NCBI GenBank assembly: GCA_028867335.1
Contig: JAGWGN010000001.1
Location: 22,910 to 86,909, forward strand
DNA: 64,000 nucleotides
From: Candidatus Micrarchaeota archaeon
GTDB taxonomy: Archaea > Micrarchaeota > Micrarchaeia > Micrarchaeales > CABMGC01
Direction of reading: 5' to 3'
This document shows positions 1,835 to 61,401 of this stretch, one piece after another. The notes under the pieces were generated by a model. It made no database searches. It saw only the letters and a list, made by a program, of their open reading frames with translations, and was not told the DNA's origin. The translations under genes were made by a program, and so were the position numbers. Each line of letters begins with the position of its first letter. Positions within the stretch are counted from its first letter, which is position 1.

Positions 1835-2341
1835 TTATCCCTGGGCGGACCTGACGTTTTCCGTGAGGATCTTGAGCGCCTCGGATTTGATCTCGTTGAT
1901 TTTATCGTCTGTCAGGCCCGGGCCGTTGAAATAAGGCGGCGCTTTTATCAGAGGATACACTTTCCTGGTGAACAGCTTCCTGAGTTTGGTCGCGATCTCC
2001 GGACTTATGGCATCAGGTTCGTCTCCAAAGACTTTCGCGGAGTGCGTTATTTTAAGGTGCGCGACCAGTTTTTCCGTGGTTATTCTGCCGAACTCTTTTA
2101 TTTGGTTGTGCACTGCCCAATCTGGGAGCTTGATGGGGGCGTTGCTGGTAACCTCAAGCACCTTATACTGCGCCATTGAGAATTTAGACGCTATTATCTC
2201 GGCTTCTTTTTCTAGAAAAGGGGCAAGGTCCTGTGGGCGCCTTGCGAGCCCCTTAAGCTTTGACGCCTTACTATTTGCCTCCGACCTTATCAGCATTGTT
2301 TCTCCAGGAGGTATCGGCTTTACTCTGGTCGCGGGGTCCAT
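1835..2341 (-). CDS. hypothetical protein
   Basis: 168-aa ORF with TATA CTTTATAAATACC about 35 nt upstream on the minus strand. No family recognised. Confidence 0.55.
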   Translation of the reverse strand: MDPATRVKPIPPGETMLIRSEANSKASKLKGLARRPQDLAPFLEKEAEIIASKFSMAQYKVLEVTSNAPIKLPDWAVHNQIKEFGRITTEKLVAHLKITHSAKVFGDEPDAISPEIATKLRKLFTRKVYPLIKAPPYFNGPGLTDDKINEIKSEALKILTENVRSAQG

Positions 2342-2600
2342 CTTGTCGCCTTTAACAAGTATTCTTTATAGGGTATTTATAAAGATTTTCTACGAATCCG
2401 TTTTGTGTATTTATTCATCAATTTTGGCAACTTTTTACACAGAAATCTTCTTTTTTACACAGAATTTTTCTGTGCCCGCTTTTTCTTTCAAAATTTTGAG
2501 GGGTGAGAAAATAGAATTCGGAAACTATATGGAAATTTTAATGTATCTATCTATGATAACTGGATTTTTGTTATTATTATTCGAATTACACCTAATATGA

Positions 2601-3749
2601 TTACAATGTAGGGAATGAAGGTATCTGTAATGAATGATAAACAAAAACTTGTAGAATAAATAATATCAAAACCAAAATGATAAATGCTATAGTAATAATA
2701 TTCGTTAGTCTTAATGTGCGAAATTCTCTTCCCATTCTATTAAGTGTAAAACCTTTATTAATATCATAGAGTTTATTTGTATCGAATTCCTTAGTGTGTC
2801 CCTCCCTAAGATTCTGGTAAGTTTCTTTTAATTTATGATAATTATTTAAAAATAATTGGGGTTGTGATAAATTGGTAAGAGCGATTTGAGTTTCATCAAA
2901 AACCTTAGAAAATTTATTAAAATCCTCCCCATTTGCCGACCTAATAAATCTATCAAATGTTGCTAAATTATTAACAAATTCTCTAACTCCAAATTTTTCC
3001 TCGATTGTTAATCCATTCAATTTTAAACTTCTAATAAAAAGTTTAGTGAGCCATAAATCTATCTGTATTTTATTTCTTTTCGGAATAGGGATAAATTCTG
3101 TTTTCTCACGTCTGAAAGTTTTGCCAGCTTCTATGCCTTCAGTAATAAATATGCTAAGCATCTTTTCAGTGGATAATGAATAATAAAGTCTTGAAAAAAG
3201 ATAAAAACCGATAAACATAAAACTAACCGTTCCAGCGAAAAAGAAAATACCATATAAAAGATCTAAAATAAGAAAAATGAGTGGAGTTTGATGATACAAA
3301 TTAGGATAATAAGAATAAATTATGGGTATAATCCACACTATTGCAAATGATAATATGGTAAGGAAAAATAACGGAATGGCTTTATAGTAAGACAGACGCC
3401 AGTTTTCACAATATCTTATTTCATCTTCAACAGGAACTGAATCCCTAAATCTCGGTAAATTTTTATAAATCTGATGAAAATGTTCAAAAGAAAAGTATCT
3501 TTTGAGTTCGATATTATTTTCCTTTTTAAAAAGGAAGTATGCTATTCTCAGTGCTACTATCCCTAAAACAAACATAACTATTAATTCGTAGACAAATCCC
3601 CAAAATATGCCTCCATTTTCTATTATCCCCCCAAGAACAAATATGCCATCTGAAAGATAGATTAAGTAAATTATGAATAAAGATAAAATCGAAATTGCCA
3701 TTATTAGAAGGAAAATTCCGAAAAACCATTCCCAAGTCACATTTTTCAT
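2601..3749 (-). CDS. multi-pass membrane protein of unknown function (passenger gene downstream of the transposase)
   Basis: 382 aa. It has N-terminal and central hydrophobic helices, a ~150-aa soluble charged region and a C-terminal TM helix. It is very AT-rich and starts 23 bp downstream of the transposase stop on the same strand. Confidence 0.6.
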   Translation of the reverse strand: MKNVTWEWFFGIFLLIMAISILSLFIIYLIYLSDGIFVLGGIIENGGIFWGFVYELIVMFVLGIVALRIAYFLFKKENNIELKRYFSFEHFHQIYKNLPRFRDSVPVEDEIRYCENWRLSYYKAIPLFFLTILSFAIVWIIPIIYSYYPNLYHQTPLIFLILDLLYGIFFFAGTVSFMFIGFYLFSRLYYSLSTEKMLSIFITEGIEAGKTFRREKTEFIPIPKRNKIQIDLWLTKLFIRSLKLNGLTIEEKFGVREFVNNLATFDRFIRSANGEDFNKFSKVFDETQIALTNLSQPQLFLNNYHKLKETYQNLREGHTKEFDTNKLYDINKGFTLNRMGREFRTLRLTNIITIAFIILVLILFILQVFVYHSLQIPSFPTL

Positions 3750-3772
3750 GATATTAATATCGTATAAAATAA

Positions 3773-4930
3773 CTAAAAACTTTGGTTTGTCTCATTATTT
3801 ACGACTACAATATTATGGCACAAAACCTTCAGCAACAACTCGTTAATCTGTGCTGTCTTTGTCTTGCTCTTTAGCATATCGCTAAACTTTGCCTTCAACA
3901 TAAAAAACGTGCTTTCCACATTACTTCTCTTGTGGTAATGCGCCATAAAATCCTCTCTATTTAGCATAAAGTAGTGATACATCTTCTTCCACGCAATACT
4001 ACCCACTGAGGACTTGACGGCGTTTCTTTTGAAAGGTATGAAGGGAATCCCTCCAACCTCTCTTACTTTTGTTAGGTTATCACGTGAGCTATACGCCAAA
4101 TCCGCAGATACTTCAGATATGTTGAACCCATTCTCTGAAGTCATCTTAACAAGTGGGATAAATTGCTGGCTATCGCTTGAGTATCCCTCGTTAACTTCTA
4201 CTGCCGTTATGATATTGGTCTTAACGCCAGTCATTATGTGGCATTTAATCCAATTGTGCTTTTTGATTAGGTTATGCTTCATCTTGCAATATTCTGAAAA
4301 CTTTGTAGTTCTAAATCCACTACTATCAATCGCAAAGTCCTTTTCTACTGCTTTCATAGGCAAAGCAGTAATTTGGATCAACTTACTAAGAATAGGTGTT
4401 AGTTCCTCTTTCTGCATAAAGTGTCCAACAGAAGCAAAACAGGGAGTATGCTCAACATATCCCTTTTCCTTTGCCGTCCTCAAATCACTCATAAATCGCC
4501 TTAGCGAGAACTGAGTATAAACCTTCAGAGCAGAGGCAAAAAGCAAGTCTTTATTAGCTATCTTAGGACGACCTTTGCAATTTGGCTGTTCTTCTGCCTC
4601 TTCGCACAGGTCATTAAGCATTTTCATAAAGCTGTCTTTCTCATTGATTTGACACTTATCATAGGTAGCCCAAGTTTGCTGATACGTCATACGTTTGCTC
4701 TGTGTGCCCTGTGGCGTTTCTATCTCTGCCTTAAGCATATACCTTACAGCGTAGGCGTGTTTGCAGGTGGTCTTGTGCAACTGACTATCGGCGCAATCAC
4801 AAACAAACTCTTGATTTACAAGATACTTCTTTCGCCCATCTGTTTGTGAAGGCACAATCCAACCAAACTTGTCTTTCTGTATCTGCAAAGTCTTCGCAAT
4901 TTCATATCCTTTTTCTTGTCTTCGTTCCAT
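3773..4930 (-). CDS. IS4/IS5-superfamily DDE transposase with N-terminal SWIM-type zinc finger
   Basis: The sequence CDCADSQLHKTTCKHAYAV fits a SWIM finger (CxC..CxH). DDE candidates are FAIDSSGF and SADLAYSS. The sequence YHKRSNVESTFFMLK fits the Y-2-R-3-E-6-K (YREK) signature of IS4/IS5 transposases. Confidence 0.85.
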   Translation of the reverse strand: MERRQEKGYEIAKTLQIQKDKFGWIVPSQTDGRKKYLVNQEFVCDCADSQLHKTTCKHAYAVRYMLKAEIETPQGTQSKRMTYQQTWATYDKCQINEKDSFMKMLNDLCEEAEEQPNCKGRPKIANKDLLFASALKVYTQFSLRRFMSDLRTAKEKGYVEHTPCFASVGHFMQKEELTPILSKLIQITALPMKAVEKDFAIDSSGFRTTKFSEYCKMKHNLIKKHNWIKCHIMTGVKTNIITAVEVNEGYSSDSQQFIPLVKMTSENGFNISEVSADLAYSSRDNLTKVREVGGIPFIPFKRNAVKSSVGSIAWKKMYHYFMLNREDFMAHYHKRSNVESTFFMLKAKFSDMLKSKTKTAQINELLLKVLCHNIVVVNNETNQSF

Positions 4931-4948
4931 TTTATCCCTTTATTCATC

Positions 4949-5013
4949 ATACGTATAGTATGTATTATGAATAAGCAGATATATAAAGGTATAGGTATAA
5001 TACGTATAGTATG
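4949..5013. promoter_or_regulatory. two 14-bp direct repeats ATACGTATAGTATG (each containing the palindrome ATACGTAT), 51 bp apart, in the divergent transposase/RHH intergenic region
   Basis: Exact copies lie at 4949-4962 and 5000-5013. The second copy overlaps the RHH start codon. This layout is typical of an operator for a ribbon-helix-helix repressor. Confidence 0.4.
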
Positions 5014-5175
5014 GGAAAGGCAAAGAAGATAGAGAAGGAAACGGCAATACCTAAGACAATAACGCTTATGCCAAAACACCAACGTTTTATCGAGGCAAAG
5101 AGCATTAATCTATCTCGTTTCGTTCAGAAAGCATTAGACGATGAGATAGAAGCGCAGGGTTGGAGAGAGGAATAA
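5011..5175 (+). CDS. small ribbon-helix-helix (CopG/Arc-like) DNA-binding protein
   Basis: My own translation (54 aa, below the track cutoff) is MGKAKKIEKETAIPKTITLMPKHQRFIEAKSINLSRFVQKALDDEIEAQGWREE. It has a beta-strand (TITLMP) followed by two helices. Its stop is 1 nt before the next ATG. Confidence 0.55.
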   Translation: MGKAKKIEKETAIPKTITLMPKHQRFIEAKSINLSRFVQKALDDEIEAQGWREE

Positions 5176-27360: not shown

Positions 27361-28509
27361 ATGGCACTTGCACTCGAGCTCAAAGGCGAAAAGGTATACG
27401 CCGCGGACCATCCGACAAAGGATGTGCTTGGCAAGAGCAGCTACGGCAAGATTGCAAAGGGGAGGCTCGAGCTTCTTCCAGAGGAGGCGCTCTATTTGAT
27501 GGACGTGCGCAACGCAGGGTGCAAAGCAAACAAGAAACAAATAACATTCACTTCGCTAGCACGCAAATTCTCAAACAGAAAGCTGATGTCTAGGTACTTC
27601 GCATACAAGGACTGGAGGGACAGGGGTCTGATTCTGCGCAGCCCAACACTTGGCCACATCTCGCCGCACGCGACCCCGATCAAGAGATACCCCGGCGGGA
27701 AGATAAAGCTGCCAGGCTACAGGCTAAAGGGCGCATTCTTTCCGCACGACCTGATGTCAGTTCTCGAGGACGACGCCAAGGGCAAGTACCTCTATGAGAA
27801 CTACTGGCTGGGTCAGTACGGGACCTACAAGGCAGCCGATAGGGGCAGGCTAAACAAGCTCGACGCCTACGAGACGCTCTTTCTGATGGACAAGGGAAGG
27901 CTCACACTCAGCAACGCGACAAAGGCCAAGGTCGCATCCATTGCAAGGAAGAGGCGGGCGGATTTCCCAAAGCTCTACGAGGTCTACAGGGACTGGAGGG
28001 AGCACGGATACGTGATAAAGACGGGCTTCAAGTTCGGCACGCATTTTAGGGTCTACTTCCCCGGGGCAAGGCCGATAAAGGACGACAACTGGGTGCACTC
28101 AAAGCACGTCATACACGTCTTTCCAAAGGAGTCAAAGCTCCTGATCTCAGAGTGGGCGAGGGCGATCAGGGTTGCGCACTCGGTTAGAAAGACATTCATC
28201 CTTGCGATTCCGGGAAAGGCAAGGGCCAAGGGAGGCGAGATCGACTTCATGCTATACCACAGAAAAGGCGGTGACACCGAGAGTCCGGACAAATCCCCTC
28301 CTAAGTTTGCGATGCTCTCGCTGGGCGAGGAGGAGTACATAGGGGGTAGCGAGCTATCTGGGGCGATAAGAAGCGCGCAGGGAAAGAGACTGGAACTCGT
28401 CCTTGCGATTGCAGACCGCGAGACCGCAGTAACATACTACAGGGTCAAGAGGATAGAGCTTCCTGGAAGCAAACACGACTACTACGAGATAGACTGGATG
28501 CAGCCATAG
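27361..28509 (+). CDS. endA: tRNA-splicing endonuclease EndA, long multi-unit form
   Basis: There are two N-domain-like signatures (YFAYKDWRDRGLILR and YEVYRDWREHGYVIKTG). There is one catalytic unit (FRVYFPG..HSKHVIHV..HSVRKTFILA, the Y/H/K triad) and a ~90-aa extra C-terminal unit. Total length is 382 aa. Confidence 0.85.
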   Translation: MALALELKGEKVYAADHPTKDVLGKSSYGKIAKGRLELLPEEALYLMDVRNAGCKANKKQITFTSLARKFSNRKLMSRYFAYKDWRDRGLILRSPTLGHISPHATPIKRYPGGKIKLPGYRLKGAFFPHDLMSVLEDDAKGKYLYENYWLGQYGTYKAADRGRLNKLDAYETLFLMDKGRLTLSNATKAKVASIARKRRADFPKLYEVYRDWREHGYVIKTGFKFGTHFRVYFPGARPIKDDNWVHSKHVIHVFPKESKLLISEWARAIRVAHSVRKTFILAIPGKARAKGGEIDFMLYHRKGGDTESPDKSPPKFAMLSLGEEEYIGGSELSGAIRSAQGKRLELVLAIADRETAVTYYRVKRIELPGSKHDYYEIDWMQP

Positions 28510-47211: not shown

Positions 47212-47284
47212 AACTTTTTCTATAAAAAATTAGATTTTTTTCGCAGGATTTAAAAGTAAATCCGTCAAATTAAATAACACTGAT

Positions 47285-47545
47285 TTGATGAGAGTGGTAG
47301 TGGATCCTAAAGTCGAAAAAGTATTTACCACCTTTCCAAAATTTGTACAATCCAGATTATTAAAAAAGATAAATCTGCTAGAAAGATTTCCTTTAATAAA
47401 TGCAGACATAAAGAAATTAGGGGATGGCGTATACAGAATGAGATCTGGAAGATACAGGCTACTATTTAGGGCTAAAAAGGAAAAAGATTTAATTGTTGTT
47501 TACGAAATAGATACAAGAGGAAAGATAAGTTATGCAAAAGGTTAG
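47285..47545 (+). CDS. RelE/ParE-family type II toxin
   Basis: The sequence GVYRMRSGRYRLLFRAKKEKDLIVVYEIDTRGKI is typical of a RelE-fold C-terminus. The gene is AT-rich. Confidence 0.75.
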   Translation: MMRVVVDPKVEKVFTTFPKFVQSRLLKKINLLERFPLINADIKKLGDGVYRMRSGRYRLLFRAKKEKDLIVVYEIDTRGKISYAKG

Positions 47546-47771
47546 CCTTGTGAAAATGCACCGAGACATCGAAAAGCTAAAGAAGGCCGTAAATACACTC
47601 AACCAGAAGATACGATTCAGAGGAGATTCCATCAAAATAGAAAGAATAGACGAAAGCAAGCTCTCCCCACTCCAGAGAAGGAGACTAAAAGAGGTTGACA
47701 GGCAAATAGAAAGTGGGAATTTAAAGAATTTTCTTACGCTAAACGAATTGAAAAAGAAATATCATCTTTAA
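47532..47771 (+). CDS. candidate cognate antitoxin (downstream, overlapping the toxin by 14 nt)
   Basis: 79 aa, coiled-coil and basic, ending in ..ESGNLKNFLTLNELKKKYHL. The assignment rests on position only. Confidence 0.4.
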   Translation: MQKVSLVKMHRDIEKLKKAVNTLNQKIRFRGDSIKIERIDESKLSPLQRRRLKEVDRQIESGNLKNFLTLNELKKKYHL

Positions 47772-51941: not shown

Positions 51942-53063
51942 TTACTCGTCCGATTCAGAGACCTGTCTCATCGCTAAAAATGCTTCCTTAAGTGGTTGGC
52001 TTACAGCTGAGTCAGATTCTTTCAAAACAAGTTCCTGATACCTGTTCAGAAAATCCATTCTTACCTCATTGAATAAATGTAGAAAGTGTCTAAGAAATCC
52101 TATACAATCAAGTATAGCGATTTCAGTTCCTCCTGTTTTTTCATAAAAACTATTTGCATATTCTACAACTTTTCTATCTATTTTTTCTGTTGTTATAAAG
52201 ATGTAATTATGAATTCTAGGTTTAACTCTTATAATTTTACTAAGTGCTGCATCTACATCATCGTTTGTTACCTCTTTCATTTTCATTTCATAAGTGGTGA
52301 CTATGTTTTTTCTACCGGTAAAACATATTTCAACATCTCCGATAGACTTTGTCTGCAGATCTGCAGCATTATGTGAATTTAATGGAAGTGGAATTTTACC
52401 CAATTTTAAACTTGCAGATTGGTATGCCGCAGCAACAATTAGCACTGGTAGCCTGCTAGAATTTTTAGAGGCCAGATGCTGACCTATAAGAGTAATTATT
52501 GCTTCTGATGAAAGAGGCAAGGAACCCTTACTCCTACCTAAACTTTCAAGTAGTTTTTTCATCCTATCTCCTTTTTCATTTTTGAATATTATAAGTTGTC
52601 TGATTACTTCGATAAGTACATCTTCTGAATTAACCACATTTCTTTGAACTGCATCCAAAACATCTATTGTGTAAATGTAAACCTCTCTCGGCCTTCCTAC
52701 CATATCAATTTTTTTATTTAATGCCTGATCTCTATTTCTTAATGCTGGGGTCAAAAACGCAGTAGTAGAATTACAAGGTAATCCATATTCGTTTATAAAA
52801 TGAGTTATATACTGTTCATCATATGTCCTTCCTGAAAAGGAGTCTTTATCCCCAATCTCCGTATAAGGTTTAAGGATGTTAAATTTGGGATTATCTATCT
52901 TAGCTAATAAACACGAAAGTAAAAGTCTTGCACCCGCTCTATTCGACCCACATTTACAAACATATTCTATTTTATCAAGTATCTTTCTGTCCACAATTAT
53001 TGGTTTTAGAATATTTTTTACGGCGAGCCTCATACTATCTTTTAATATCCTCTCTGGTTTCAT
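51942..53063 (-). CDS. putative type II restriction endonuclease (PD-(D/E)XK candidate)
   Basis: It lies directly downstream of the Dam-like MTase with a 5-nt gap. It is AT-rich. The segment SIGDVEICFTGRKNIVTTYEMKMK fits D...ExK. The specific family is not recognised. Confidence 0.5.
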   Translation of the reverse strand: MKPERILKDSMRLAVKNILKPIIVDRKILDKIEYVCKCGSNRAGARLLLSCLLAKIDNPKFNILKPYTEIGDKDSFSGRTYDEQYITHFINEYGLPCNSTTAFLTPALRNRDQALNKKIDMVGRPREVYIYTIDVLDAVQRNVVNSEDVLIEVIRQLIIFKNEKGDRMKKLLESLGRSKGSLPLSSEAIITLIGQHLASKNSSRLPVLIVAAAYQSASLKLGKIPLPLNSHNAADLQTKSIGDVEICFTGRKNIVTTYEMKMKEVTNDDVDAALSKIIRVKPRIHNYIFITTEKIDRKVVEYANSFYEKTGGTEIAILDCIGFLRHFLHLFNEVRMDFLNRYQELVLKESDSAVSQPLKEAFLAMRQVSESDE

Positions 53064-53068
53064 CTAAT

Positions 53069-53941
53069 TCACTGAAGATTAACTTGTTTAGGAAGTTTAT
53101 AATTTATCCACAAAAATTCTCTTCTGGTATCTTTTGTAGAATGAATAGTTTTTAAAGGCCCAACTATTTTAGTCCATTTAGGTTCTGGATAAAGCTTATT
53201 CATTATTTCACAATCATAATTGGATATCGCTACCCTTCCTTCTACCTTATTTAAAACCTCTGCAAGCTCAATATGATCTTTATCAGTCATTTCTGCTCCG
53301 TACGCATTTTTGTCTCCACGAGTCGAATGGACATATGGCGGATCGCAATAAAATAATGTATTTGGTGAATCGTATAGCGAAATTATTTCAATAGCGTTTC
53401 GATTTTCAATTTGAACCCTTAGTAACCTATCAGCTATCTCAGGTAATGCCTCAACCGCACCAAGCCATCTACTAACTGACCCACTCATACCTGCCCGTGA
53501 GGTATTTTTGCAATTTGCCCATCTCCCCAATGTAGCTTTTTGTGCAAGTCCTGTTCTTACTTGTCTTGCACGAACATAAAATCTACGAGCGCGTTCTAAA
53601 TCTCCTAAGTTTTTTTCTAAATTACAAGCATGCAAAAATTCTTCGCGGGAAAAAGGCGTAAGACCTATTGCTTCTATCAATTCTGCTTTTTGTGTTCTTA
53701 GCACTTTAAAAAAATTAACTACTTCCCCATCAATATCATTGTAGGTTTCTATTGGAGAAGGTTTACGATTAAGCAAAATTGCTGCTGATCCTCCAAAAGG
53801 TTCACAAAAATGATACGATTCTGGTAAATATGGTAGTAACCAGTCCAGATGTGAATATTTGCCCCCATACCAACCAAATGCTATTAATTTTTTCTTATGC
53901 CCTCTAACTACTGTTTGAACTTTTGTTTTAGTACTTAGCAT
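53069..53941 (-). CDS. D12-class N6-adenine DNA methyltransferase (Dam-like)
   Basis: The sequences FGWYGGKYSHLDWLLPYLP and FCEPFGGSAAI (SAM binding) are present. YCDPPY is the catalytic DPPY motif. Confidence 0.85.
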   Translation of the reverse strand: MLSTKTKVQTVVRGHKKKLIAFGWYGGKYSHLDWLLPYLPESYHFCEPFGGSAAILLNRKPSPIETYNDIDGEVVNFFKVLRTQKAELIEAIGLTPFSREEFLHACNLEKNLGDLERARRFYVRARQVRTGLAQKATLGRWANCKNTSRAGMSGSVSRWLGAVEALPEIADRLLRVQIENRNAIEIISLYDSPNTLFYCDPPYVHSTRGDKNAYGAEMTDKDHIELAEVLNKVEGRVAISNYDCEIMNKLYPEPKWTKIVGPLKTIHSTKDTRREFLWINYKLPKQVNLQ

Positions 53942-54004
53942 AAGACTACCTATAATAGAATTAGAAAAATAACCTTATAAACTGCTCGAAACTTTCCAGT
54001 TTTT

Positions 54005-54275
54005 TAATGTAGACTATACACACCGTATCTCTCTTCATCTATCCTATGTAACATCTTATTTCTCTCGACAAGATCGATCTGAATATACACTTAAAAGGTA
54101 AAGGGCATACATACGATTCTAAGATACTCTTAGAGATTCTCCACACTCTATATCTCTTCCCCTACCCCTGTGGAGAGTCCTCTTTCTCTCGACAAATCCA
54201 TCAAAAATGTACACACCAAGCTGCAGGGGGTGTGTAGAGTCTTCTAAGATTGTTTTAGAAGGATTTTCACAAATT
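54005..54275 (+). repeat. hairpin-repeat block 1 (units A+B, ~128 bp each)
   Basis: See findings. The block contains the arms TCTCCACA (54138-54145) / TGTGGAGA (54169-54176) and TACACACC / GGTGTGTA. A small hairpin TCTAAGA-TAC-TCTTAGA lies at 54118-54134. 14-bp inverted termini AGACTATACACACC (54011-54024) / GGTGTGTAGAGTCT (54229-54242) are present. The block ends in GGATTTTC. Confidence 0.6.
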
Positions 54276-54294
54276 TTGACATGAATTTCCTAAA

Positions 54295-54783
54295 TCAGTC
54301 TGAATATTCAAAAGAAAGTTTGTTATATTCATCCGTATTATAACTGCCAATCCCTTCCTCGTGCCACAGAACAAATTCCTTTATCCCAACGTCAAGCGCC
54401 ATCTTGCTGCAGATGGTGCAGTACGGCTTTCCTGCCCTGGTTGGCAGGTTCCTCTCATCTAATCTTATGAAGTATAATCTTGACCCGACTATCTTGGTCG
54501 GGTTTGTCTTCAGGGCTTCGATTATCGCCCTCTGCTCGGCGTGGACGCAGCAGGTCTTGTCTGTCACCCTCTTGTTGTATAGCTCCTTCTCATTGCCGCA
54601 CCTTCTCTGGTCCTCCCTGTTTGCTGGTGGTGAGTTGAATCCCCTTCCTATGATGGTTCCATCGCTGCCCACTATCACGCTTCCGCACTTGTGCCTCTGG
54701 CAGCTTGCTTGGGAGGCAGCCTCCGCTGCCTCAAGCATGTATTCTTCAGCCTCGATCTGCTCCTTTGTGGACATATATCGCAT
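54295..54783 (-). CDS. dCMP deaminase (cytidine/deoxycytidylate deaminase family)
   Basis: HAEQRAI (zinc His plus catalytic Glu) and PCTICSKM (PCxxC) are present. A leaderless start is likely at ATG 54783 (MRYMSTKE), ~27 nt from TATA. The track extends to 54840, into the repeat. Confidence 0.85.
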   Translation of the reverse strand: MRYMSTKEQIEAEEYMLEAAEAASQASCQRHKCGSVIVGSDGTIIGRGFNSPPANREDQRRCGNEKELYNKRVTDKTCCVHAEQRAIIEALKTNPTKIVGSRLYFIRLDERNLPTRAGKPYCTICSKMALDVGIKEFVLWHEEGIGSYNTDEYNKLSFEYSD

Positions 54784-54829
54784 ACTTTTGTTATGGCCGC
54801 AAAATTCTATATCGTTTATGTCCTGCCTT

Positions 54830-55090
54830 GGGATATACACACTCTATATCTACTCCCAACTCCAGTGTACACTCCTGTTTCTGCCGACAAGACCTCTTGG
54901 GATATACACGCAAAACAAGGAGGGTGTGCAGATGGTTCTAGGATGTTTTTAGAGACTCTCCGCACTATATATCTCTCCCCCACCCCTGTGGAGAGTCCCT
55001 TCTCTCTCGACAGATGGGTTAAGGGTCTCCACGCTATGCCCATGGGGGTGCGGAGAGCATTCCAAGATGTTCTTGGCGGATTTTATCCTA
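54830..55090 (+). repeat. hairpin-repeat block 2 (units C+D), paralogous to block 1
   Basis: Unit D aligns to unit B at roughly 80% identity over the first ~60 nt (hand alignment). The arms CTCTCCGCAC (54956-54965) and GTGCGGAGAG (55048-55057) are perfectly complementary. A small hairpin CCAAGA-TGT-TCTTGG lies at 55062-55076. The block ends in GGATTTTAT. Confidence 0.6.
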
Positions 55091-55708
55091 ACCCTTCTGG
55101 ATTGAGAGGACCTTGATCTTGAATATCAGGGTCTGGCCCGCAAGCGGTGCGTTGAAGTTGACAGTTGCAACTGTCGCATTGAGCGAGGTTACCACCCCCC
55201 TTCTCTGGATGCCGCTGATTATCGTGCTGATCTGGTCTCCTAACTTGATCGAGCTGCTCTGGTTGCCAAAGGCGCTAAGAGGGACCGGTATTATCAGGGA
55301 TGGATCTACAGGCCCGTATGCCTGCTCTGGCGGTATTGTGATGTTCTTTGTCTCGTTGAGACTCATTCCTATCACTCCCATATCAAATCCCTGGATAAGC
55401 TGCCCTCCTCCCACCTTGAATGTAAGCGGCGGCTTGCCGTTGCCTGCGTTCGTGTCAAAGACGGTTCCGTTTGTGAAGGTTCCCGTGTACTCAACGCTTA
55501 TGTTGTCCCCTGTCGCCACTACTGGCGCAGAGACTCCTGCCGCTTTCGCGGATGTGCTGCTTATTGCCAAGTAAATCACTCCAATTACTATGATTGCCGC
55601 AAGGATGTAGAGAGGCTTTATCTCAAATTTTGCCTTCTTCTGGGTTTCATGGGCCTTGTGGTCGTGCTTTGTGGTTTCGTGTGCCGCTTTTTGTTGATCT
55701 GCCGCCAT
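55088..55708 (-). CDS. membrane-anchored FKBP-type peptidyl-prolyl cis-trans isomerase
   Basis: An N-terminal TM helix is followed by VEYTGTFTNGTVFDTN...FKVGGGQLIQGFDMGVIGM...IPPEQAYG. Confidence 0.85.
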   Translation of the reverse strand: MAADQQKAAHETTKHDHKAHETQKKAKFEIKPLYILAAIIVIGVIYLAISSTSAKAAGVSAPVVATGDNISVEYTGTFTNGTVFDTNAGNGKPPLTFKVGGGQLIQGFDMGVIGMSLNETKNITIPPEQAYGPVDPSLIIPVPLSAFGNQSSSIKLGDQISTIISGIQRRGVVTSLNATVATVNFNAPLAGQTLIFKIKVLSIQKG

Positions 55709-55712
55709 CTTA

Positions 55713-56954
55713 TCACTCTGGTTTTAGTATAACAGAACTGTAGCTTTTCGTCTTAATATACTTTTTGCAATACTTCTTAACATCCGCAAGCTTAACCTGC
55801 GATATCAGGTCCGGAAGGTTTTCAGTGTACTTGTAATCTCCGGTGGTCAGTGTCATGCTCGTTATCGAATTTGCCATCGCCATCGTGTTCTCCCTGAGGA
55901 TCCTGTACTGGGCGATGAGTCCTTCCTTCGCCTTTTTGATGTCATCCTCAGTTATCTGGCCCTTCCTCATCTTTTCAAATTCTTCGAGTATTATCCCCTT
56001 CACCTCCTGAATCTTCTTGGGCTCCACTCCCGCCTGCACCGCAATGAAACCAAAGGTGCTGAGCTGGAAGTAAGATGCCCACTGAATGTATGAAAGCCCC
56101 CTCTTCTCCCTAACCTCATCGGTTATCCTGTAGTTAAGCACCCTGGCCGCAGTGATGAGCGCGGTGGTTTCCCTTACTGTGGACGGATGGAATTCCCTGC
56201 ACTTGAAACCCACCCCGATTATTGCCTGCTTTATGTTCTCCTTTCTTACAGTAACCTCATTCTTTACCTGCGGTTCCCTTGCAAGCGGCCTCTGCTTCTT
56301 TACCTCCCTCTTATTAAACTTCGAGAAATATTTTTCAGCAAGCCTCTTTGCGACTTCTATTCCTACGCTTCCGTATATGGCAACAACCGTGTTTTGAGGA
56401 GTGTAGTAAGTCTGGTATATCTTAAGCAAATCTTCCCTCTTGATCCCCTTTATCGACTCCCTATTTCCGACCATCTTCCTTCCTGCAGGGTGCCTTTTGT
56501 AGAGTGCCTTAGGGAGGTGGTCCCAGAAGAAGTACTGGTTGTTGTCCTCCCTCATCAGCTCCTCGTTTAGAACAGGTCCCCTCTCCAATTCAAATTCGGT
56601 TTTTGGTATTGTCGAGTTGAGGAACAAATCCGAAAGCAGCTCTATCATTTTTGGGAAATTGTCCTTGTATGCCTGGAAGTAGTATGTTGTTCTCTCAAAA
56701 TCAGTGTAGGCATTCCACATTATCCCCATGTCGCGTATCTCTTCTTTTATCTGGCTTACAGTTCGTGTCTTTGTGCCCTTGAAAAGCATGTGCTCAAGGA
56801 AATGGGCAGCTCCCATTGTCTGGTCACTGTCATCCATCGAGCCGTAGCTCACTCCGATAGCGATAGATACGCTCTCAAGGTAAGGCGTAGGATATATGAA
56901 GATTCTAACTCCGTTTTTCAAGGTGAAGGATTCGCTTTTCATGTTTTTCCTCAA
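55713..56954 (-). CDS. M16-family (pitrilysin/insulinase) zinc peptidase
   Basis: GAAHFLEHMLFKGT carries the inverted HxxEH zinc motif. Confidence 0.85.
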   Translation of the reverse strand: MRKNMKSESFTLKNGVRIFIYPTPYLESVSIAIGVSYGSMDDSDQTMGAAHFLEHMLFKGTKTRTVSQIKEEIRDMGIMWNAYTDFERTTYYFQAYKDNFPKMIELLSDLFLNSTIPKTEFELERGPVLNEELMREDNNQYFFWDHLPKALYKRHPAGRKMVGNRESIKGIKREDLLKIYQTYYTPQNTVVAIYGSVGIEVAKRLAEKYFSKFNKREVKKQRPLAREPQVKNEVTVRKENIKQAIIGVGFKCREFHPSTVRETTALITAARVLNYRITDEVREKRGLSYIQWASYFQLSTFGFIAVQAGVEPKKIQEVKGIILEEFEKMRKGQITEDDIKKAKEGLIAQYRILRENTMAMANSITSMTLTTGDYKYTENLPDLISQVKLADVKKYCKKYIKTKSYSSVILKPE

Positions 56955-57442
56955 TTGCCTAAGGCTTCCCCAAGCTTGTCAAGAGACTCGTTCCAGCCCT
57001 GCCTTGCCCTGTCGATCATTTCGTCTGGAAGCCCCATGTATCTAACGGTGAGCTTGGTCTTTCCCCCAACCTCATTGAATGTGACCGTGACCATGGCCTC
57101 AAGCGCCATATCTGCGCTCATGCCGTAGGTTGACGCAGGGATAACGTTTCCCTTCTCGTCCGAGAAGCTGGTTGTTGCCACGATCTTGCTATGCGGAACT
57201 ATCTCCTTGAACTTGCCCGTGTTCCAAAAGTCCTTCTGCCCACCCATCGCCTTTGCGATCTCATCAGATGCGCGCATGCAGTAGAGGTACTTTCCTCCGA
57301 CTTTGAAGTCTATTGTGATAAATGGTGCCGTGAATCCTCTCGGTCCCCACCACTTCATAATCTCCTTTTGCGTGGTCCATGCCTTCCACACCCTCTCCCT
57401 TGGCACATCGAAAATCCGCTCTACGACAAGTTCCTTGCCCAT
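56951..57442 (-). CDS. SRPBCC/AHSA1-domain protein
   Basis: The sequence ERIFDVPRERVWKAWTTQKEIMKWWGPRGFT is present. Confidence 0.8.
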   Translation of the reverse strand: MGKELVVERIFDVPRERVWKAWTTQKEIMKWWGPRGFTAPFITIDFKVGGKYLYCMRASDEIAKAMGGQKDFWNTGKFKEIVPHSKIVATTSFSDEKGNVIPASTYGMSADMALEAMVTVTFNEVGGKTKLTVRYMGLPDEMIDRARQGWNESLDKLGEALGN

Positions 57443-57444
57443 TA

Positions 57445-57639
57445 TTATCTACCCTTCTGTGCAATCTTCTTAACCTTCAAATATAATCCTAAGTCAAAGT
57501 TCGCAGATTCGAGTACGGAGTTTATCAAAACTGCCTGCTGTCTTGACCATTGGGCATCGGTGCTGACTCTTATGTGGTTGGCCCATAATCTAACAAAACT
57601 GAGCCTTTCAACCATGTCTCTTTTACTATGCGATTCCAT
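57445..57639 (-). CDS. hypothetical small protein overlapping the NTase gene by 14 nt
   Basis: 64-aa ORF in an operon position. No motif recognised. Confidence 0.35.
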   Translation of the reverse strand: MESHSKRDMVERLSFVRLWANHIRVSTDAQWSRQQAVLINSVLESANFDLGLYLKVKKIAQKGR

Positions 57640-58228
57640 ATCTCTTCATCCACTTTTCTACCTTAAGTTCCTTACTCATCTTTGCCATCAATTCCTTATT
57701 AAGTTTGCCCTTGAAGAGCTCACTTATATGAACTGCGTCCTCAATGTCCTTTTCTGATCCCAACCAGAGCTTGAATGGTATCTGAACCTCAAGTGGCGAC
57801 ATGAAAAATATCCTTCTCTTTACGATTACCTTCAAAGGCGTTCTGAGAATCGTCAAGTCAAGGACCTTCTTCGGGAATTTTATCTCAAAATTCGGTATCC
57901 ATTTCCCCTTCTCAGCAATTCTTATTGCAAGCCCATCTTCAAGGAATCCAAAAGCCTCCCTTTTGCTGTCGGTGTTCACTATCCAGTATCCATTTTCAAT
58001 CAGCCTGTCAAAAAACAAGGAGAATCTTCGGTAACTTAGTTTCTCTATAAAGAGATCTATGTCCTCGGTGGTCCTGCTCCTGCCCAAAAAGATCGCAACG
58101 TAGCCGCTTACTATTACATATCTTATCTTGGACTTTGAAACCAGGTCCAAAAAATCTAGCACGATCCTGTCAAGCTCGTTAAGCGTCTTGTCGAACTTAA
58201 GAGTCCCTTTTTCAAGGCTAAATTTCAC
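57626..58228 (-). CDS. nucleotidyltransferase-fold protein (MNT/AbiEii-like)
   Basis: VSGYVAIFLGRSRTTEDIDLFI fits the NTase G[SG]...DxD motif. The gene is AT-rich and directly downstream of tRNA-Asp. Confidence 0.5.
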   Translation of the reverse strand: MKFSLEKGTLKFDKTLNELDRIVLDFLDLVSKSKIRYVIVSGYVAIFLGRSRTTEDIDLFIEKLSYRRFSLFFDRLIENGYWIVNTDSKREAFGFLEDGLAIRIAEKGKWIPNFEIKFPKKVLDLTILRTPLKVIVKRRIFFMSPLEVQIPFKLWLGSEKDIEDAVHISELFKGKLNKELMAKMSKELKVEKWMKRYGIA

Positions 58229-58242
58229 TTACGCACTACAGG

Positions 58243-58348
58243 TGGCGCCTCGGCCGGGATTCGAACCCGGGTTTCAGGGTCTATTAGAGCAAACTAATAG
58301 GCTTACCAGCGTGACAGGCTAGTGTGCTAACCACTACACTACCGAGAC
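58243..58348 (-). tRNA. tRNA-Asp (GTC) with a ~30-nt insertion (intron) 3' of the anticodon stem; encoded CCA
   Basis: The minus strand reads GTCTCGG-TA-GTGT..GCAC-A-CTAGC-CTGTCAC-GCTGG, then 35 nt (TAAGCCTATTAGTTTGCTCTAATAGACCCTGAAAC). It continues CCGGG-TTCGAAT-CCCGG-CCGAGGC-G-CCA. The insertion contains a 7-bp hairpin, CTATTAG/CTAATAG. Confidence 0.8.
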
Positions 58349-58395
58349 ACACACCCACTACTTATTGGTGGATAAATGGTTAAAATGCTTTGGTT

Positions 58396-58656
58396 TTAGT
58401 AGGAATAATCATGGTGTTCAAAGGATTTGAGTGCTACCTGTCGTATTTCCTCATTTATTGTATATTCCAAAACAAATGGGCCGATGTGCACATGCCATAT
58501 TCCTTTTAGGTAGGATCTCATCGGGTCTGCAATTCTAGGATTAATGAGGAGTTGGCCAATCTTTCTGTATAGCTGCCTGTGCGTCGCAAGGTCCCTTCTT
58601 CTAAGTTTGTTTAACTCCTTTTGGAGTTTATTTGGTACGAAAAGCGAATAAGGCAT
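58396..58656 (-). CDS. RelE/YafQ-like type II toxin
   Basis: 86 aa. The sequence LKGIWHVHIGPFVLEYTINEEIRQVALKSFEHHD fits the RelE-fold C-terminal pattern. Confidence 0.6.
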   Translation of the reverse strand: MPYSLFVPNKLQKELNKLRRRDLATHRQLYRKIGQLLINPRIADPMRSYLKGIWHVHIGPFVLEYTINEEIRQVALKSFEHHDYSY

Positions 58657-61297: not shown

Positions 61298-61401
61298 TCC
61301 CGTTGGGGAGAATCGAACTCCCAACCTGTCGGTATCCAGCAATGCATAGCAGTGCTAGTCACAAACTACAGCCGACCGCTCTACCTTTGAGCTACAACGG
61401 G
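61298..61401 (-). tRNA. tRNA-Tyr (GTA) with a ~32-nt canonical (37/38) intron
   Basis: The minus strand reads CCCGTTG-TA-GCTC..GAGC-G-GTCGG-CTGTAG, then [TTTGTGACTAGCACTGCTATGCATTGCTGGAT]. It continues A-CCGAC-AGGTT-GGGAG-TTCGATT-CTCCC-CAACGGG-A. The C1:G72 pair is as expected for archaeal tRNA-Tyr. Confidence 0.85.

Follow-up and report, generated by a model that had tools for sequence, protein, structure and literature searches.

The region described here lies in a 64,000-nt stretch of DNA from a Candidatus Micrarchaeota archaeon, the whole of which is called the window (W). It carries a repeat unit in four copies, arranged as two-unit blocks on either side of a dCMP-deaminase gene, with units A and B forming block 1 and units C and D forming block 2. 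A repeat search of the 64 kb window gave four collinear repeats with start-to-start steps of 123, 696 and 123 nt. A search of the whole window with nhmmer found exactly four sites that match the unit profile (E 2e-29 to 5e-35), and the window outside units A-D contains zero further matches to the unit profile, motif or covariance model. Four units had already been recognized in a sequence-only reading of this DNA and were recovered within a few bases of the coordinates claimed there, with a period of 123-125 nt instead of the proposed ~128. The features of the locus are the following, with positions given in the window.

51942-53941, minus strand: low-GC (0.33-0.35) island with a putative restriction endonuclease and a D12-class adenine methylase
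53944-54009, plus strand: left flank of block 1, AAGACTAC...GAAAAATAACCTTATAAAC...TTTTTTAATG
54011-54136, plus strand: unit A, u1-type, degenerate (nhmmer E=2e-29; alignments); intact parts are L1 54014-54023, linker 54060-54071, L2 54084-54090 and H3 54118-54134
54134-54261, plus strand: unit B, u2-type, intact (covariance-model score 126.7 bits); L1 54137-54146, TATA-like loop 54147-54157, C-string 54165-54168, R1 54169-54177, linker 54184-54195, L2 54208-54214, G-string 54226-54229, R2 54230-54239, H3 54243-54259
54260-54271, plus strand: end tail of block 1, AGGATTTTCACA, a T-tract after H3
54295-54786, minus strand: dCMP/cytidine deaminase gene, 162 aa (Pfam PF00383), between the blocks
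54831-54955, plus strand: unit C, u1-type (nhmmer E=5e-35); L1 54833-54842, loop 54843-54853, R1 54864-54872, linker 54879-54890, L2 54903-54909, R2 54924-54933, H3 54937-54953
54953-55079, plus strand: unit D, u2-type, best preserved (covariance-model score 136.6 bits; folding z = -3.5); L1 54956-54965, loop 54966-54976, C-string 54983-54986, R1 54987-54995, linker 55002-55013, L2 55026-55032, G-string 55044-55047, R2 55048-55057 (perfect 10-bp partner of L1), H3 55061-55077
55078-55089, plus strand: end tail of block 2, GGATTTTATCCT, reaching into the FKBP stop codon (55088-55090, minus strand)
55088-55708, minus strand: membrane-anchored FKBP-type peptidyl-prolyl isomerase gene, the conserved right neighbour

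Each unit follows the order arm L1, loop (CTATATCTCT plus a C-string), R1, linker TTCTCTCGACAA, L2, G-string, R2 and a small hairpin H3, and the alignments bear out the shared layout that had been proposed. The arms read CTCTCCACA or TATACACA, with inverted partners 12-23 nt apart, and imperfect palindromes with conserved mismatches are present in the units. Units B and D are most alike in their first half, as had been noted, and show 72% identity overall. In unit A, R1, R2 and the C- and G-strings have decayed, and half of the L1:R2 pairs are broken. Several details of the earlier description hold: unit D contains the perfect 10-bp complement between 54956-54965 and 55048-55057 and the change from T-A to C-G in its small hairpin, and the 14-bp inverted pair of block 1 (54011-54024 and 54229-54242) is present, consisting of L1 of unit A and R2 of unit B. 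Both blocks also close with a hairpin followed by GGATTTT, and the hairpin of unit D (55062-55076) with its tail was scored as terminator-like in a scan for terminators of the bacterial type.

The same element occupies the same place in three related lineages known from metagenomes, namely S1, S2 and a more distant one, T; their FKBP proteins are 84-86% (S1/S2) and 53-55% (T) identical to that of the window. In 4/4 lineages the FKBP stop codon adjoins the element, which starts 8-20 nt past the stop, and the GGATTT(T) tail after u2 is kept in 5/5 blocks (W block 1, W block 2, S1, S2 and T). Both S1 and S2 possess a single block (u1+u2), of which the u1 units are 73% identical to unit C, and in T the array is split by another inserted ORF (129 aa) with partial duplication of a unit. 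The deaminase gene is missing from the element locus in S1, S2 and T. The window deaminase has a 100% identical counterpart in a Micrarchaeota MAG, and its closest homologues (65-72% identity) occur in other contexts, with no units nearby; a weak nhmmer match at the end of locus L002 consisted of a tRNA fragment and a chance TTCTCTCGACA, and is no real unit. Between the element and an antiporter gene lies the low-GC island, a variable segment with a different gene content in every lineage. Elsewhere in the window, a seemingly conserved 82-nt stretch (47476-47557) is part of the gene for a small ParE-like toxin, not an RNA.

Searches of genome, metagenome and viral collections gave two true pattern matches, which represent the orthologous S1/S2 locus, plus one chance match. 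A degenerate two-motif pattern had no match in genome contigs, a collection that does not include this MAG, a scan of genome contigs for the M16 peptidase returned unrelated bacteria only, two pattern scans of viral contigs yielded none and then one chance match, and phage and plasmid collections gave no BLAST match. At FKBP loci of 50-60% identity, T excepted, neither a spacer past the gene nor the element is present. As judged from the 64 kb window and ~93 kb of related DNA, the element is not a dispersed repeat but keeps to a single chromosomal position in a small group of Micrarchaeota; the 'family' of units put forward earlier comes down to a conserved locus present in single copy. A link to the deaminase and restriction-modification genes as such was claimed as well. 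Since the normal form is one block downstream of FKBP and the second block is specific to this lineage, the tie is rather to the 3' end of FKBP and to a hotspot of insertion. The second block in this genome is a lineage-specific duplication tied to the insertion of the deaminase gene.

These observations bear directly on the suggestion that the blocks are MITE-like, non-autonomous mobile elements that inserted on either side of the deaminase gene. The hairpin-rich units, the inverted termini of block 1 (complementary at 13/14 positions) and the presence of a DDE transposase gene in the window (3773-4930) would be in line with such an origin, but the termini are ordinary L1 and R2 arms as found in every unit, and scans of the 64 kb window and ~93 kb of DNA from related genomes by nhmmer and the covariance model detected no other copy. 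Furthermore, the blocks show no target-site duplication and no flanking direct repeat, and their position is fixed and syntenic in four lineages down to 53% FKBP identity. Because dispersed copies are lacking in the DNA searched, target-site duplications are missing, synteny is kept and the termini are internal arms, the MITE reading is rejected; the chance that it is correct is negligible. A similar distinction applies to REP/BIME sequences, which are likewise tandem hairpin-forming extragenic repeats at gene 3' ends, but occur in hundreds of dispersed copies and not at a single locus.

Between S1 and S2, identity is 96% for u1 and 84% for u2, as compared to 81% for third codon positions of FKBP; between W and S1/S2 the block is 73-78% identical and the FKBP third codon positions are 68-72% identical. 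The likeness of S1 and S2 ends at most ~5 nt to the left of L1, and on the right side the element adjoins FKBP. Other intergenic stretches gave no BLAST alignment between W and S1/S2. As judged from these alignments, the element is shown to be under purifying selection, because its identity stays at 73-96%, whereas the DNA just outside it on the left is unrelated and intergenic stretches elsewhere gave no BLAST alignment. A protein-coding explanation was discarded: units differ by 1-nt indels, and the ORFs over the blocks vary in strand and frame, with none common across lineages. The genomes of DPANN archaea are tiny and contain hardly any non-coding DNA. Since a fixed non-coding element of 250 nt has nevertheless been retained in such small and coding-dense genomes, at one position and down to 53% FKBP identity, it is very likely functional.

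The claim that the element matches no described RNA family is confirmed by the absence of a match among 4227 Rfam families even at E<=10. At the gathering threshold, Rfam 15 detects only six tRNAs in the window, and with E<=10 the region 53900-55200 and the S2 block gave chance-level matches, with no meaningful score over the units. Inspection by eye revealed no conserved C/D box, H/ACA, K-turn, BHB, hammerhead or other ribozyme, SRP or RNase P motifs. The locus is most readily compared to orphan structured ncRNA motifs (e.g. Weinberg et al. 2017, PMC5737381), with which it shares a conserved, sharp-edged intergenic block, compensated stems, invariant loop motifs and a narrow taxonomic range. 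It differs from these in consisting of two tandem homologous domains, each with 4-5 mutually similar arms. Type III antitoxin RNAs also have repeated units and a terminator-like hairpin at the end, but their repeats are 36-45 nt long and lie directly upstream of a ToxN-like gene, whereas the units of the element measure 123-125 nt; among the genes downstream of the element, which differ in every lineage, no match to toxin models was found.

Evidence for pairing comes from ten units. A nested structure, in which L1 pairs with R2, is 83.5% paired over the 10 units, as compared to only 35-61% when it is slid by 1-3 columns. Its covariation score of 0.209 was reached in 0/500 shuffles, a control that is optimistic for related sequences such as these ten related units from four lineages. 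Ten pairs of the nested structure have changed on both sides. The L1:R2 pair at alignment columns 17/107 is A-U in eight units and G-C in two, and the close relatives S1 and S2 are separated here by a double substitution; the corresponding R1 position changes in such a way that L1:R1 is never Watson-Crick in those units. In H3, one pair occurs as U-A, C-G or U-G, and another as A-U, G-C or G-U. RNAalifold independently selected the L1:R2 closing helix in both units. On the other hand, local hairpins are 85% paired and rival the nested fold; the two cannot be cleanly separated since the arms within a unit are all alike, and much of the 'covariation' is a single arm difference between u1 and u2. 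The compensatory changes support pairing, which in the predicted fold chiefly concerns the long-range L1:R2 helix and H3.

Folding of the blocks on the plus strand gives z values of about -2 to -3, with z <= -2 in 4/4 full blocks (W block 1, W block 2, S1 and S2), as compared to one full block at z <= -2 and a second at z = -1.9 on the minus strand. It had been argued that G-T pairs are compatible with pairing only if the plus strand is read as RNA. This is correct for H3, with 10 G-T versus 3 A-C, but it does not extend to the large arms, in which the numbers are about equal. The RNAalifold energies of the two strands are also equal (-39.96 versus -39.78 kcal/mol), and for several single units the minus strand gives the better fold. 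The H3 counts and the block folds, together with the conserved GGATTT(T) tail and the A-rich and TATA-like sequences upstream of the blocks, weakly favour the plus strand as the coding strand of a candidate RNA.

A minus-strand RNA deserves attention in this respect. It would be a structured 3' UTR of the FKBP mRNA, or an RNA processed from it, whose function would be to stabilize the FKBP transcript, to end it, or to shield it from same-strand genes that were inserted downstream. The element lies 8-20 nt past the FKBP stop codon in every lineage with no minus-strand T-tract in between, and the genes directly past the blocks (the deaminase, both methylases, a nuclease-like ORF in S2 and the ORF in T) are all on the FKBP strand. 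Further arguments are the equal consensus fold energy, the better minus-strand folding of several single units and, in S2, a minus-strand TTTTTATTTT run past the element. However, T-tracts after the element are not conserved on this strand and are missing in S1 and after block 1 of W, while the sixth pair of H3 would be lost in most units by conversion of a conserved G-U to A-C. The conserved GGATTT(T) tail would have no role, and whole-block folding is more consistent on the plus strand. We consider an origin from the FKBP transcript unlikely.

Sequences upstream of the blocks give a mixed picture. In the left flank of block 1 an A-rich stretch is followed by TTATAAA, which looks like a BRE/TATA pair facing block 1. 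This flank is common to the S1 block, despite unrelated adjoining methylase genes (PF02086 in the window versus PF01555 in S1), and an A-rich stretch plus a TATA-like element occurs 20-70 nt upstream in each case. The promoter-like sequence upstream is not kept between the close relatives S1 and S2. The TATA boxes to which attention had been drawn are indeed present, but their distance to the element varies by lineage and they also serve neighbouring genes.

Much of the above can also be read at the level of DNA. A block contains ~10 similar half-sites of 9-10 bp (CTCTCCACA or TATACACA, in both orientations), which could be bound by protein or be folded as single-stranded or cruciform DNA. The element would then be a cis-acting recombination/attachment site or other chromosomal site, at which foreign genes are captured and the site is partly duplicated. 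Every unit has five arm-like sites, including the linker CTCTCGACA, that are conserved both in sequence and in complementarity; the conservation of stem sequences is compatible with a protein-binding array, and conserved loops combined with numerous half-sites of like sequence are just as characteristic of complex sites for recombination or binding. Next to the element is a variable island with different contents in 4/4 lineages, and the array has been interrupted by two independent insertions, the deaminase in W and the 129-aa ORF in T, each with duplicated units on its flanks. In its size of ~250 bp and its many arm sites the element is reminiscent of complex att sites such as lambda attP. 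Compensatory changes are compatible with folded single-stranded DNA as much as with RNA, and are also expected of folded-DNA sites such as integron attC. Against this, no integrase, recombinase or transposase gene was seen in the ~20 kb annotated around the S2 element or among the adjoining window genes, the sole DDE transposase of the window is ~50 kb away, and the arm motifs occur elsewhere in the window at chance frequency only. Coordinated changes in L1 and R2 would be unexpected for simple protein half-sites, the blocks are ~72% identical, unlike the near-identical repeats of recent site-specific integration, and the conserved loops and T-tract would be left unexplained. A DNA-level site is a possibility that has to be reckoned with, although a rather doubtful one.

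Two known systems are instructive in this context. Integron attC and other folded-DNA sites resemble the element in being imperfect inverted repeats of ~60-140 nt that keep their pairing by compensatory changes and sit between captured genes of one orientation. The element differs from them by conservation in sequence as well as structure, and by the presence of 1-2 sites per genome without a cassette array. No IntI-type or other integrase/recombinase domain was found in the element-flanking genes of W, S1, S2 and T, and inspection of the unit sequences revealed no attC cores R''/R' (RYYYAAC / GTTRRRY). The hotspots formed by tRNA and tmRNA genes likewise involve a small conserved non-coding gene (here a candidate) that borders a restriction-modification/nuclease island, with partial or whole copies on both sides of inserted DNA, as in W and T. 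Differences are that the element is not a tRNA and has no integrase, that its repeats are long (~125-250 nt) and only ~72% identical, and that the island would be on its 5' side if the RNA is encoded on the plus strand. It is conceivable, but quite improbable, that the element represents a clade-specific gene-capture site of Micrarchaeota, made of folded DNA (or RNA-templated), with the hairpin units as recombination substrate and with single-gene cassettes inserted in one orientation, such as the deaminase, methylases, nucleases and small ORFs, 1-2 units being duplicated each time. Such a site would be an integron- or att-like platform in DPANN archaea without a recognizable integrase nearby.

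The likeness of the arms to ORB boxes with G-strings also raises the possibility of a replication origin or some other target of Orc1/Cdc6. There are CTCCAC-type boxes followed 10-12 nt on by a G-run (e.g. TCTCCACGCTATGCCCATGGGGG at 55026-55048), the short boxes are numerous and occur in both orientations, and the cumulative GC skew and gene orientation switch at ~48-52 kb, only a few kb off. However, ORB and mini-ORB elements are built around a dyad core with invariant TTCC and GAA, of the TTCCAGTGGAAA type (PMC1904270). This core (TTCCAGTGGAA-type dyad) is missing here, and the arms have no GGAA half. No orc1/cdc6 gene was found among the scanned window ORFs of 327-547 aa or in ~20 kb around the S2 element, an AT-rich unwinding region between inverted boxes is missing, and the G- and C-strings are not conserved in lineage T. 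At the skew switch the genes converge, as near a terminus, and the skew tracks the coding strand, GC skew within a single window being uninformative as a marker of either origin or terminus. An interpretation as ORB-type boxes is not supported, the TTCC...GAA dyad being absent and no orc1/cdc6 having been seen nearby among the genes scanned, and an origin at this position is very improbable. No RNA family or DNA site described to date accounts for the element.

The best single explanation is the one that had been offered as an undescribed structured ncRNA; its proposed association with the deaminase and restriction-modification genes as such does not stand. Our preferred reading is an ncRNA gene with two domains that is specific to this lineage, the plus strand being weakly favoured; it is to be held tentatively, as a serious possibility that falls somewhat short of being probable. 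The locus would originally have been the spacer of a convergent gene pair, encoding an Mrp-type antiporter subunit and FKBP, and would harbour an independently selected non-coding gene for a structured RNA of ~250-260 nt. This RNA would consist of two homologous domains of ~125 nt, u1 and u2, each closed by the long-range L1:R2 helix of 9-10 bp. Inside, the C-string may pair with the G-string and R1 with L2, leaving two invariant single-stranded motifs exposed, CUAUAUCUCU and UUCUCUCGACAA, at which a protein or RNA partner would be likely to bind. Each domain would be followed by H3 as a small hairpin of 6-7 bp, and the U-tract past u2 would end the transcript a few bases short of the FKBP stop codon. 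We infer transcription, the strand used and the transcript end from these features. In the genome studied here, insertion of the deaminase gene with duplication of the whole block would have produced the order block 1 - deaminase - block 2, after which block 2, next to FKBP, stayed conserved and unit A of block 1 started to decay. The element and its left edge would act as a hotspot for incoming methylase and nuclease genes.

If the element indeed encodes an RNA, it would be a structured RNA limited to one clade and unusual in its design of two domains with multiple arms, in a group of organisms of which the RNA biology is almost unexplored. Apart from this, the locus records two independent gene insertions with long element duplications, next to a methylase/nuclease island, and thus provides a concrete place for studying gene acquisition by reduced archaeal genomes. 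The covariance model of the element offers a direct means of surveying further genomes.

Four collinear repeat units occupy positions 54005-55090 of the window. Their starts lie 123, 696 and 123 nt apart in a repeat search, and a MAFFT alignment of them has a mean column identity of 72% (n=4). An nhmmer profile made from these units recovers exactly these four sites in the 64 kb window (E 2e-29 to 5e-35), and no fifth. The unit boundaries according to nhmmer and the surrounding genes are as follows.

51942-53941, two-gene low-GC island (0.33-0.35), from the antiporter stop codon to block 1
53069-53941, minus strand, D12-class adenine methylase gene (Dam-like, type II), left of units A and B
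54011-54136, unit A
54134-54261, unit B
54295-54786, minus strand, dCMP/cytidine-deaminase gene (162 aa), between units B and C
54831-54955, unit C
54953-55079, unit D
55088-55708, minus strand, FKBP-type isomerase gene, its stop codon adjoining unit D

Units A and B (block 1) sit between the methylase gene and the 3' end of the deaminase gene, and units C and D (block 2) between the deaminase start and the FKBP stop codon. A and C are of one type (u1), B and D of the other (u2), and a u1+u2 array is called the element here. All units have the order L1, loop, R1, linker, L2, G-run, R2, H3, and both blocks of the window end in GGATTTT.

Arm L1: CTCTCCACAC in B and D, TATACACAC in A and C
Loop after L1: holds CTATATCTCT and a C-run
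Arm R1: TGTGGAGAG
Linker between R1 and L2: TTCTCTCGACAA, invariant
H3: hairpin of 6-7 bp, TCTAAGA-NNN-TCTTAGA, the last part of the unit

A coordinate-level check found this layout to have been drawn accurately in the sequence-only reading, apart from the period, which is 123-125 nt and not 128 nt. Unit A, from which R1, R2 and the C- and G-runs have all been lost, looks like a decaying duplicate. With PADLOC, the deaminase has a weak match (E=5e-9) to a dCTP-deaminase defence protein, located in the deaminase domain of the latter. Proteins labelled DPANN archaea and Candidatus Magasanikbacteria are among its nearest homologues (65-72% identical), and the nearest ones looked at lie in genomic contexts other than that of the window. 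The window's deaminase is 100% identical to a protein of a 'Candidatus Micrarchaeota archaeon' MAG, and two tRNA genes carrying long introns identify the window as archaeal.

A degenerate two-motif DNA pattern had no match in the genome collection, which does not include the window's own MAG, and matched two JGI metagenome contigs, which share synteny and about 80% nucleotide identity with the window. Together with further contigs reached via FKBP homologues, these define two related lineages, S1 (loci L010-L015, FKBP 86% identical to that of the window) and S2 (L009 and L017-L021, 84%). In both, the gene order is antiporter gene, short low-GC island, one u1+u2 block and FKBP stop codon, and the deaminase and a second block are absent from the locus. 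In a more distant lineage, T (locus L022, GCA_028866785.1), whose FKBP is 53-55% identical to the window's, gene neighbourhood and element are the same, and the units are still detectable by nhmmer (E 2e-19 and 9e-16). The FKBP loci of more distant Micrarchaeota have neither a spacer 3' of the gene nor the element, and a covariance model from ten units found no extra copy in 157 kb of window and related DNA. Judged by these loci, what had been taken for a family of repeat units is single-copy and syntenic within one Micrarchaeota clade rather than a dispersed repeat family, and its ancestral setting is the spacer between the convergent antiporter and FKBP genes. A MITE is scarcely credible, as the copy number is that of a single locus, target-site duplication is lacking and the positions are orthologous.

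Regarding the history of the two blocks, A and C are each 72-75% identical to u1 of S1/S2 and 64.5% to each other, while u2 of S1/S2 shares 65-71% identity with B and 77-78% with D, against 72% between B and D. Block 1 and the S1 block have matching left flanks, and block 2 keeps the FKBP junction. The simplest reading would be that one ancestral block was duplicated upon insertion of the deaminase gene, with later divergence of both copies and decay of unit A; a diverged block copy may alternatively have arrived with the incoming DNA. The bracketing of the deaminase by two blocks is real in the window and is judged to be a secondary duplication; S1 and S2 have one block and no deaminase. In T the array (L022 4596-5410) is split by an unrelated 129-aa ORF (4771-5160). 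Left of the ORF, u1 is intact and u2 is partial and degenerate; right of it, a remnant of H3 from u1 precedes an intact u2 adjoining FKBP. This is a second, independent insertion inside the array, with a different span duplicated.

The island beside the element is variable as well. In the window it carries the D12-class methylase and a 373-aa ORF whose sole match, a weak one, is to SacI endonuclease (putative endonuclease), in S1 an N6/N4 methylase, in S2 an Mrr/NERD-like protein (weak matches), and in T small proteins of no recognised family. Since the cargo differs in all four, the element marks an insertion hotspot. Such an arrangement resembles tRNA-gene-adjacent islands and the 'insertion with long target duplication' known from R-M genes. 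The flanking genes (window neighbours and S2 annotation) include no integrase, the phage and plasmid collections gave no similarity to the element, and, different from integron attC sites and type III antitoxin repeats, the respective partner genes are absent.

Between S1 and S2, u1 is 96% and u2 84% identical, compared with 81% for FKBP third codon positions; between the window and S1/S2 the values are 73-78% for the element and 68-72% for these codon positions, and other intergenic stretches give no BLAST alignment. The similarity of S1 and S2 stops about 5 nt or less left of L1, where unrelated island DNA starts, and the right edge adjoins the FKBP stop codon; the conserved span is exactly L1 of u1 through the T-tract after u2. 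This conservation indicates that the element is under selection.

Several pairing schemes compete, because all arms within a unit resemble each other. A scheme of local hairpins (L1:R1, L2:R2, H3) has 85.2% of cells paired and a covariation of 0.193, reached by 6 of 500 shuffles, and a nested fold (L1:R2 closing helix, C-run:G-run, R1:L2, H3) has 83.5% and 0.209, reached by 0 of 500, statistics that rest on ten related units with a shuffle control that is optimistic for related sequences. Sliding the partners of the nested fold by 1-3 columns lowers pairing to 35-61%. Both sides have changed at ten of its pairs, much of which is a single u1-versus-u2 arm difference (A-U versus C-G at the fourth arm position). 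The most informative position is the seventh arm base, where unit D and u2 of S1 have G, T and C in L1, R1 and R2, and u2 of S2 and T have A, C and T. As the L1 and R2 states change together, L1:R2 is always Watson-Crick (G-C or A-U), while L1:R1 never is in these four units (G-U or A-C). This coordinated change, which separates the close relatives S1 and S2, favours a putative long-range L1:R2 helix closing each unit and would be hard to explain by independent protein half-sites. RNAalifold chooses the same helix for both u1 and u2, and the perfect 10-bp complement noticed earlier in unit D corresponds to it. H3 varies at three pairs, the first being U-A, C-G or U-G, the second A-U, G-C or G-U, and the third G-U or G-C. 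Compensatory changes fit a folded single-stranded DNA site equally well as an RNA; a folded or protein-bound DNA site taking part in gene insertion is considered somewhat unlikely.

The G-T pairs, previously put forward as plus-strand evidence, hold as such in H3 (10 G-U versus 3 A-C) and not in the large arms, which have no G-U bias. In each of the five blocks, u2 is followed by a GGATTT(T) or pyrimidine tail that is wedged in between H3 and the FKBP stop codon, and that of unit D is rated terminator-like by a terminator scan. The blocks have A/T-rich TATA-like elements with an A-run before them at 20-70 nt upstream; the flank AAGACTAC...GAAAAATAACCTTATAAAC...TTTTTTAATG is common to block 1 and S1 despite adjoining methylases of different families, and the upstream sequences of the S1 and S2 blocks are unrelated. 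A folding z <= -2 is obtained on the plus strand for all four full blocks and on the minus strand for one (a second at z = -1.9); the consensus fold energies of the two strands are equal. A minus-strand RNA or an FKBP 3' UTR is considered quite unlikely. Our tentatively preferred reading is that the element may be a clade-specific two-domain structured ncRNA gene, the plus strand being weakly favoured.

In line with the earlier claim of an undescribed element, Rfam gave no family match even at E<=10; of that interpretation, a selected, hairpin-built element stands, at a single conserved locus instead of a repeat family. ORB and mini-ORB sites are defined by a TTCC...GAA dyad (PMC1904270). With this dyad absent from the element, the G/C runs not kept in T, and no orc1/cdc6 gene found nearby (scanned window ORFs and S2 surroundings), the proposed ORB-type boxes are not supported and a replication origin is very improbable.

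Elsewhere in the window, a low-GC patch (2000-5000; 0.30-0.40) holds a DDE transposase gene (3773-4930) and a 382-aa ORF without Pfam match (2601-3749). An AT-rich stretch at 47270-47770, rearranged relative to S1/S2, contains small ParE-like toxin and antitoxin-type ORFs; an 82-nt piece considered as conserved non-coding DNA falls inside the toxin gene. The M16 peptidase beside FKBP (55713-56954, compared with L011 and L019 152-1360) evolves much faster than its neighbours, with 58-69% protein identity and 41-46% at third codon positions, against 85-91% for FKBP and about 81% at the nucleotide level for most genes. Between this gene and a tRNA gene, 56951-58228 holds AHSA1 and a 200-aa ORF, absent there from S1 and S2. 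That tRNA gene (58246-58348) and another (61298-61401), both on the minus strand and about 103 nt long, were detected by Rfam and missed by ARAGORN, presumably due to introns; S1 and S2 match the first of the two (58240-58398) at 99% identity. A 382-aa tRNA-splicing endonuclease (27361-28509) combines an N-terminal and a catalytic domain within one long chain, and we presume that it may belong to the fused multi-unit type described from ARMAN-group archaea.
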